DNA of 33,714 bases from Eledone cirrhosa (lineage: Eukaryota): assembly GCA_964016885.1 (NCBI GenBank), contig CAXHJY010001186.1, positions 1-33,714 of the forward strand. The letters run 5' to 3'. A model generated the notes under the pieces. That model was not told the DNA's origin, made no database searches, and saw only the letters and a list, made by a program, of their open reading frames with translations. A program made the translations under genes and the position numbers. Each line of letters begins with the position of its first letter. Position 1 is the first letter of the stretch. This document shows, in pieces, positions 32,011-32,109 of this stretch.

Positions 32011-32057
32011 CTTCTACAGTACTATTACTGTTTCATTCGGGGGAAATCATCAGGAAA
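32011..32057 (-). ncRNA. Type I hammerhead ribozyme (complete core, GUA)
   Basis: UUUC-CUGAUGA-u UUC cccc GAA u-GAA-ACAGUA auag UACUGU-A|GAAG: 6-bp helix III and 4-bp helix I with one G-U pair. Confidence 0.8.
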
Positions 32058-32059
32058 GT

Positions 32060-32109
32060 GCTTCCCTGATGATTTCTCCCGGATGAAACAGTAATAGTCA
32101 TGTAGAAGC
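32060..32109 (+). ncRNA. Type I hammerhead ribozyme, mirror copy, partly degenerate
   Basis: GCUUC-c-CUGAUGA-u UUC uccc GGA u-GAA-ACA guaauaguca UGU-A|GAAGC; helix I needs a 1-nt bulge and helix III is only 3 bp. Confidence 0.65.

Follow-up and report, generated by a model that had tools for sequence, protein, structure and literature searches.

Two palindromic Penelope-like insertions from Eledone cirrhosa turn at or near the outer end of a predicted hammerhead helix I

Why do two copies of a short repeat fold back on themselves at nearly the same place, just 5′ of a hammerhead-like core? The question is raised by a 33,714-nt stretch of Eledone cirrhosa DNA (contig CAXHJY010001186.1), here called the window, which contains two palindromes, copies A and B. 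Inverted CTGATGA boxes lie 6 nt apart in copy A (TCATCAG at 17534-17540, CTGATGA at 17547-17553) and 12 nt apart in copy B (TCATCAG at 32047-32053, CTGATGA at 32066-32072), as the first-pass annotation had reported. Its description of arms that are unequal at the distal end, the longer closing on a common cccgg(g/t)ataa terminus near (TA)n, was likewise true of both long arms. The long arm is the left one in copy A, with its sense on the (-) strand, and the right one in copy B, with its sense on the (+) strand.

Specifically, the copy A long arm (17413..17547, - strand; ~135 nt) comprises the helix I 5′ strand, the hammerhead core, an AT-rich middle and a terminal stem-loop. The short arm (17547..17605, + strand) is complementary to it, and thus identical in sense, at 59/59 positions, beyond which the match is lost in AT microsatellite; it stops where the AT-rich stretch belonging to the element joins the microsatellite, and is without a usable helix I 5′ strand. 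The terminus occupies 17415..17424 (- strand; positions 117-126 from the core) and is flanked by an interrupted (TA)n array (17363..17412, + strand) that resumes after 17605 with polarity unchanged. In copy B, the long arm spans 138 nt (32054..32191, + strand), or reaches 32201 if the next 10 nt are included, and the short arm (31939..32053, - strand) matches it at 110/115 positions. The distal end of the short arm falls inside the loop of the terminal stem-loop (32162..32196, + strand), 11 nt before the shared terminus (32182-32191, + strand). This stem-loop is a candidate start site for reverse transcription and a candidate 'tail', with a folding energy of -10.7 kcal/mol that is no better than that of shuffles (z -0.7). 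The two termini share one register: each ends 126 nt from the initial C of the core, at a distance of 2 nt (copy A) or 10 nt (copy B) from (TA)n. Between the copy B terminus and (AT)n lie 10 nt (32192-32201) with CAG at their end and a likeness to the reverse-complemented core; they may be degenerate microsatellite. Additionally, the copy B long arm has two apparent adjacent-base swaps relative to the short arm, at 32057-32059 (the helix I internal loop) and 32099-32100 (helix III).

Copy B is bounded by (GT)56 on the left (31827..31938, + strand) and by (AT)30 then (TG)37 on the right (32202..32334, + strand), the polarity being that of the left flank. Microsatellite strand polarity does not change across either copy, so the fold-back is a property of the insert and not of the chromosome around it or of the assembly. 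A fold-back arising in assembly or library construction was ruled out, since the flanks are not mirrored and the copy B arms have diverged. The long arms of copies A and B share 81% identity across 129 nt (BLAST within the window, E=1e-28), and a BLAST search of both against the 33,714 nt recovered only the four arms, with no shorter, longer or tandem copy. Exact matches to a 23-nt stretch numbered 0 in the bacterial and archaeal genomes scanned, as expected for an animal repeat.

The two long arms read as type I hammerhead-type motifs, an assignment made from sequence and folding. CUGANGA, GAAA and NUH occur in order in all four arms, the NUH site being GUA. In copy A the predicted core (17495..17540, - strand; GUA site at 17502-17504) consists of CUGAUGA, a 3-bp helix II on a U.U mismatch, GAAA, a 3-bp helix III with a palindromic loop, GUA and the helix I 3′ strand, while the predicted core of the copy B long arm lies at 32066..32115 (+ strand; GUA site at 32102-32104), where the third pair of helix III is broken. 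Predicted helices I/II/III are 7/3/3 bp in the copy A long arm, 5+4/3/2 bp with a one-base offset in the copy B long arm and 4/3/5 bp in the copy B short arm; the copy A short arm has no helix I of at least 3 bp. The G10.1-C11.1 pair at the base of helix II is missing, U.U taking its place in 4/4 arms, and the same mismatch occurs in an active axolotl retrozyme motif (PMC7229834). The hammerhead fold lies 5-8 kcal/mol above the predicted minimum, and all four arms continue through the cleavage site. Using Rfam, the best score of the hammerhead model around copy A was 20.5 bits against a gathering score of 48.5, and around copy B no hammerhead was among the matches listed, the stretch searched spanning both arms in each case; the top matches around both copies were generic hairpins. 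Dimer self-pairing of the helix III region was predicted at -14.8 kcal/mol in copy A and -14.6 kcal/mol in the copy B short arm, and at only -3.4 kcal/mol in the copy B long arm.

The spacer between the boxes constitutes the 5′ strand of the long arm's helix I, and in each copy it pairs with the 3′ strand of that same copy. In copy A, the spacer plus one shared base (17541..17547, - strand) pairs 7/7 with 17495-17501 (-); in copy B, the spacer (32054..32065, + strand) pairs 9/11 with 32105-32115, forming 5 bp, a 2x2 loop and 4 bp, with one additional C before the core. Between copies the pairing breaks off after 3 bp, pair 4 being changed on both sides. A count of pairs over the helices of the four arms, which come from two loci, has no power for covariation. 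Among 200,000 random spacers, 0.04% (copy A) and 0.4% (copy B) paired equally well, the latter figure being flattered by bases that the fold-back duplicated. Helix I pairing probability was 0.79-0.88 (copy A) and 0.2 (copy B) in a single arm, and 0 in the palindromic RNA.

Where, then, do the junctions fall relative to this helix? Native sequence stops 7 nt (copy A) and 12 nt (copy B) before the core, with symmetry axes at -3.5 and -6.5. In copy B it ends at the final base pair of helix I, and the helix I of copy A may once have been longer. The claim that both junctions fall at the same place thus stood insofar as both are at or near the outer end of helix I, but they are not at one base, being 5 nt apart. 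Under a uniform null, a second junction no more than 5 nt from the first is expected in 0.4-15% of cases for assumed element lengths from 3000 down to 75 nt. With n=2 copies, a fixed junction is no more than suggested for this family. In the literature on PLEs (Penelope-like elements), hammerheads and retrozymes that was searched, no report, in its accessible text, placed a head-to-head junction at helix I. A fixed junction had also been put forward as a mark against random 5′ inversion of PLE insertions, but it would not by itself set these copies apart, since PMC3846280 has already described PLEs whose palindromic junctions recur at one place.

Several other repeats in the window contain cores or fold-backs. 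A second PLE-like remnant (29142-29475) has a minimal-hammerhead-like core at 29318 (+), with CUGACGA, an unpaired U, a 6-bp helix II with a G-C base, and GAAA; a 64-bp inverted copy of the 3′ end of this element (29142-29205) is attached at a point 112 nt upstream of the core, with a spacer of 202 bp between the arms. A 3′ end related to the same element is located at ~17195-17225 (-), immediately left of copy A. At 32560-32637 (-), a solo hammerhead-like core with the GAAA-helix III-GUA letters of copies A and B has no inverted partner, and has a long helix II, a weak helix I and unrelated downstream sequence; a pattern for it, written after the core had been seen, matched 6/1000 resampled windows. 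A degenerate second core-like stretch lies near 32500-32525 (-). Fold-backs are also present at 7777-8136 (360 bp, arms 88%, loop ~23 nt, AT-rich flanks), with ends that we take to resemble Helitron-like termini and a similar end at ~22770-22800, and at 8561-9145, where a 132-bp inverted repeat (93%) surrounds inverted SINE-like fragments (8704-8782 and 8868-8945). Additional inverted repeats comprise a near-perfect 56-bp pair (4665-4720 and 5001-5056) with 280 bp of AT microsatellite between its arms, a 31-bp repeat around microsatellite (16040-16221), a ~19-bp repeat around 380 bp (16947-16966 with 17345-17363) and a perfect 22-bp palindrome (11727-11748). Given a second family that turns elsewhere, a solo core and fold-backs in unrelated repeats, a turn at helix I would characterize no more than this one family.

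The Penelope-like origin proposed by the first-pass annotation was supported by an inverted copy next to the 5′ end, a hammerhead in the terminal repeat and (TA)n targets in both copies. The inverted, 5′-truncated copy adjoins the 5′ end in 2/2 cases, and the hammerhead motif lies within the terminal repeat in both. AT-rich or (TA)n insertion sites are likewise common to the two, a weak criterion as much of the window is microsatellite, and the microsatellite flanks mask any target-site duplication. One-sided extension amounts to 11-21 nt in copy B, and the copy A short arm is without 67 nt, the tail of PLEs usually being 30-40 bp. Copies A and B are well explained as head-to-head terminal repeats of the PLE type formed by self-priming, and they behave like solo pLTR insertions, a placement made by architecture and not by homology to a named PLE. 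Short motifs from the copies were absent from the searched parts of the supplementary table of PMC8557442 and supplement 2 of PMC4209133.

No ORF with a PLE reverse transcriptase and GIY-YIG was found among the 12/130 ORFs that were scanned against Pfam (non-microsatellite sequence). RVT_1 matches occurred in 2 of these 12, both from one LINE-type element at ~23900-25470, which encodes a frameshifted, 5′-truncated reverse transcriptase (23896-25472, - strand; RVT_1 E=8e-24) whose closest listed relatives are 50-68% identical over most of the length. The reverse transcriptase ORF at 24249-25472 was considered as a PLE partner and rejected, in that among the 120 of 1239 matches listed its named relatives were animal proteins (none of them named as cephalopod), some relatives having PF14529 or PF03372 and none GIY-YIG; these endonuclease domains are presumably of the LINE type. 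Elsewhere in the window were a 61-bp G-rich minisatellite (5289-6680) and tandem SINE-like units of ~190-200 bp (26943-27731), with more copies at 22869-23000 and 28594-28803. The window reads as animal DNA rich in microsatellites, and its short interspersed repeats look octopus-like. No tRNA genes were found in the window, and an Rfam search of its whole length gave, among the matches listed (150 of 384), microRNA matches to microsatellites below the gathering score.

We consider that template run-off near the outer end of helix I, followed by self-priming of the cDNA, explains copies A and B, with a probability of roughly 0.55. In this scheme, copies A and B would be separate insertions of a short non-coding Penelope-type terminal unit into (TA)n-rich microsatellite, the unit being ~135 nt long with a hammerhead followed by a terminal stem-loop, that is, a solo pseudo-LTR or a non-autonomous derivative. 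A PLE enzyme acting in trans would nick the microsatellite, and uncleaved RNA would be copied from the terminal stem-loop to the template end, at or near the outer end of helix I. The 3′ end of the cDNA would then fold back on 1-4 bp of local complementarity with a 4-nt loop and prime its own second strand, which would halt after 59 nt (copy A) or 115 nt (copy B) and be joined to the target. The same product would result if an antisense RNA primed on its own 3′ end, the route put forward in PMC3846280. Coincidence of the junctions would reflect a fixed or almost fixed template end, whether as the start of the unit, the start of transcription or a trimming to helix I, and not a stalling enzyme.

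On this last point the earlier proposal, that reverse transcription repeatedly stalls and snaps back at helix I, is retained in part: independent snap-backs are supported, and a stall at helix I fits badly. A reverse transcriptase coming from the tail would meet the helix I 3′ strand first (~+46 to +50), so a stall there would give palindromes without a core, and the turning point lies beyond the whole ribozyme. Similarly, a snap-back through helix I pairing would be expected to leave one core as a loop and not two; neither product was seen. When folded as DNA, each junction forms a hairpin with a 4-nt loop and one G.T pair, which fits a self-priming cDNA end; the hairpins are unstable on their own (+3.3 and +2.8 kcal/mol), which counts against the scheme, as does a tail of 11-21 nt that is shorter than the usual 30-40. 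Moreover, neither copy reaches 5′ of helix I, such that native upstream sequence and the template end are absent, which also goes against it. Other points on that side are the sample of two copies, the lack of a PLE ORF among those scanned, the second family that turns 112 nt from its core and the core at 32637 (-) with no inverted partner. The distal ends are 108 and 119 nt past the start of helix II, and the enzyme of the PLE Poseidon has two start sites in a stem-loop 111-118 nt past that point (PMC11167929); we regard this spacing as a resemblance and not as homology. The same enzyme nicks AT-rich DNA and has uncleaved RNA as its main substrate (PMC11167929), with which the read-through of the cleavage site in four arms agrees. 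A further step, that in this family helix I acts as a clamp setting where the RNA template ends, that run-off and snap-back there are the regular way of priming the second strand and that the role of the hammerhead is structural, not catalytic, is tentative and would seem rather unlikely.

Foremost among the alternatives, though unlikely, is priming from two ends, whereby a dimeric PLE enzyme would nick both strands and the 5′-truncated ends of two tail-primed cDNAs, possibly from two RNAs, would be joined by microhomology; the arm ends would lie close together because both cDNAs run to the same template end. The Poseidon enzyme does cleave and extend both strands, from the same two start sites (PMC11167929), and the point at which the copy B short arm begins, inside the loop of the terminal stem-loop, is what a second start site would give. 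Furthermore, the arm differences of copy B cluster in the ribozyme part, with the better helix III in the short arm: 5/5 fall within the first 51/115 nt (p ~0.015, post hoc), a pattern that simple decay after snap-back does not predict and that suits two templates more than decay. However, the copy A arms are identical, and its short arm is without the entire distal half, which would require a later deletion. Both junctions are neat hairpins with 4-nt loops, and the structure at 29142-29475, with its 202-bp spacer, fits two-ended priming better than do copies A and B.

Next in standing, and also improbable, is that a longer PLE or retrozyme underwent ordinary 5′ truncation and inversion, with junctions close by chance or because microhomology around CUG favours a turn there. 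An inverted 5′-truncated copy is a routine feature of PLEs (PMC8557442), unrelated repeats in the window are also commonly folded back, and the sample is n=2, from copies that were noticed for being palindromes. The weight of coincidence depends on the length available, chance accounting for 5-15% if just 75-220 nt could be used but for 2% or less at 500 nt or longer. Against this reading, 2/2 copies are tight hairpins with ends no more than 12 nt from the core, native sequence in copy B ends on the final pair of helix I, and the BLAST search of the window returned no copy that was shorter or longer.

The first-pass annotation had also allowed that the palindrome itself is the propagating unit, and had proposed a tree of arms as a check. 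Across the four arms, 15/59 shared columns grouped arms within loci and 0 supported either cross-locus grouping, which makes two separate fold-back events more likely than the spread of one palindromic unit, although gene conversion could also produce within-locus grouping. Spread of the palindrome, whether as a hairpin RNA or a MITE-like DNA element, with gene conversion homogenizing the arms, is a poor prospect, even with 2/2 copies palindromic and 2/5 of the copy B arm differences being A-to-G on (+) with copy A as outgroup, as editing of hairpin RNA would give (too few to weigh). Specifically, the spacers and short-arm lengths differ between copies, and the unequal distal ends are unlike terminal inverted repeats and unlike the equal ends of a MITE or foldback transposon. 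Each spacer, moreover, matches and covaries with its own helix I 3′ strand, though hairpin RNA cannot form helix I; own-copy pairing together with a probability of 0 in palindromic RNA argues that helix I was maintained in single-arm ancestors.

Least likely, to the point of being hardly credible, is one lap of a ~135-150-nt retrozyme circle, in which reverse transcription from the tail would meet its own start just 5′ of helix I and fold back: the full helix I and 3-bp helix III are like those of retrozyme type I motifs, with U.U as in axolotl (PMC7229834), and the 10 nt past the copy B terminus end in CAG and resemble the core reverse complement, but there is no tandem copy in the window, one lap leaves unexplained that copy A is shorter than B at both ends, and folding lends no support.

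Two copies in 33.7 kb correspond to 7-214 per Mb if the window is typical, pointing to a family that is short and apparently abundant. The turning point may show where copying ends and, with junctions that can be mapped on a defined RNA helix, counting could separate self-priming from two-ended priming and locate the template end. If helix I sets that end, junctions in thousands of copies should be concentrated between -7 and -12; if they are scattered, copies A and B are an ordinary PLE remnant. Ribozyme cleavage is unnecessary in vitro (PMC11167929), and a template end set by helix I would, if true, link the origin of the inverted repeats with a role for the ribozyme when cleavage is not needed. 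Each copy, if transcribed, would also give a hairpin of 60-115 bp, a likely source of double-stranded RNA.

Known systems share much of this architecture. Head-to-head terminal repeats, junction palindromes, a one-sided tail, (TA)n targets and the self-priming reading have all been published for PLEs; within the literature searched, what appears to be new is the mapping of these junctions to the outer end of a predicted hammerhead helix I. Animal non-LTR retrozymes (PMC7229834; 10.64898/2026.07.22.740005), thought to be derived from pLTRs and to use PLE enzymes, are likewise short and non-coding with a type I hammerhead, and solo monomers occur. In contrast, copies A and B are below the 150-450 bp of retrozymes, are head to head and are not highly self-paired (z -0.8 to +0.1 in linear and circular folding), and the window has no head-to-tail hammerhead repeats of 150-450 bp. 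Opposite-strand hammerhead pairs in PLEs (PMC4209133) also have two opposite cores per insertion and a palindromic helix III loop that suits a dimer. In Schistosoma the paired cores are 100-700 bp apart and in a Cotesia bracovirus PLE a second opposite-strand motif is at the 5′ end, whereas those here are 6-12 bp apart, with a short helix II in which U.U replaces G10.1-C11.1 and a helix I longer than in minimal hammerhead motifs (PMC4209133). In D. virilis, the 5′ end of helix I is where the intron ends (PMC4209133).

Closer likenesses come from PLEs themselves. Poseidon PAc of Anolis carolinensis (PMC11167929) has a stem-loop with element ends ~110-120 nt past the hammerhead, a cleavage site that is read through and an AT-rich target; its equivalent stretch is the start of an ORF, whereas the ATGs in both long arms here each close within 5 codons. 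An adjacent inverted 5′-truncated copy, a one-sided tail and a (TA)n bias are typical of PLEs according to PMC8557442, which states that how their inverted repeats form is unresolved, while in PMC3846280 the head-to-head junctions, which lie at the 5′ end of pLTRs, are described as palindromic and interpreted as self-priming. The pLTRs of Pen2, Pen2a and Pen3a, endonuclease-containing PLEs of Adineta vaga (PMC3846280; scheme in PMC8557442), are alike in having a shorter inverted copy at the 5′ end, a junction palindrome, an extension of one arm, simple AT-rich targets and solo pLTRs, with self-priming proposed (PMC3846280, PMC8557442). Unlike these, copies A and B have no ORF between repeats, a unit of ~135 nt against 190-220, a tail of 11-21 nt against ~31 and, as mapped here, a junction at or near the outer end of the predicted hammerhead helix I.
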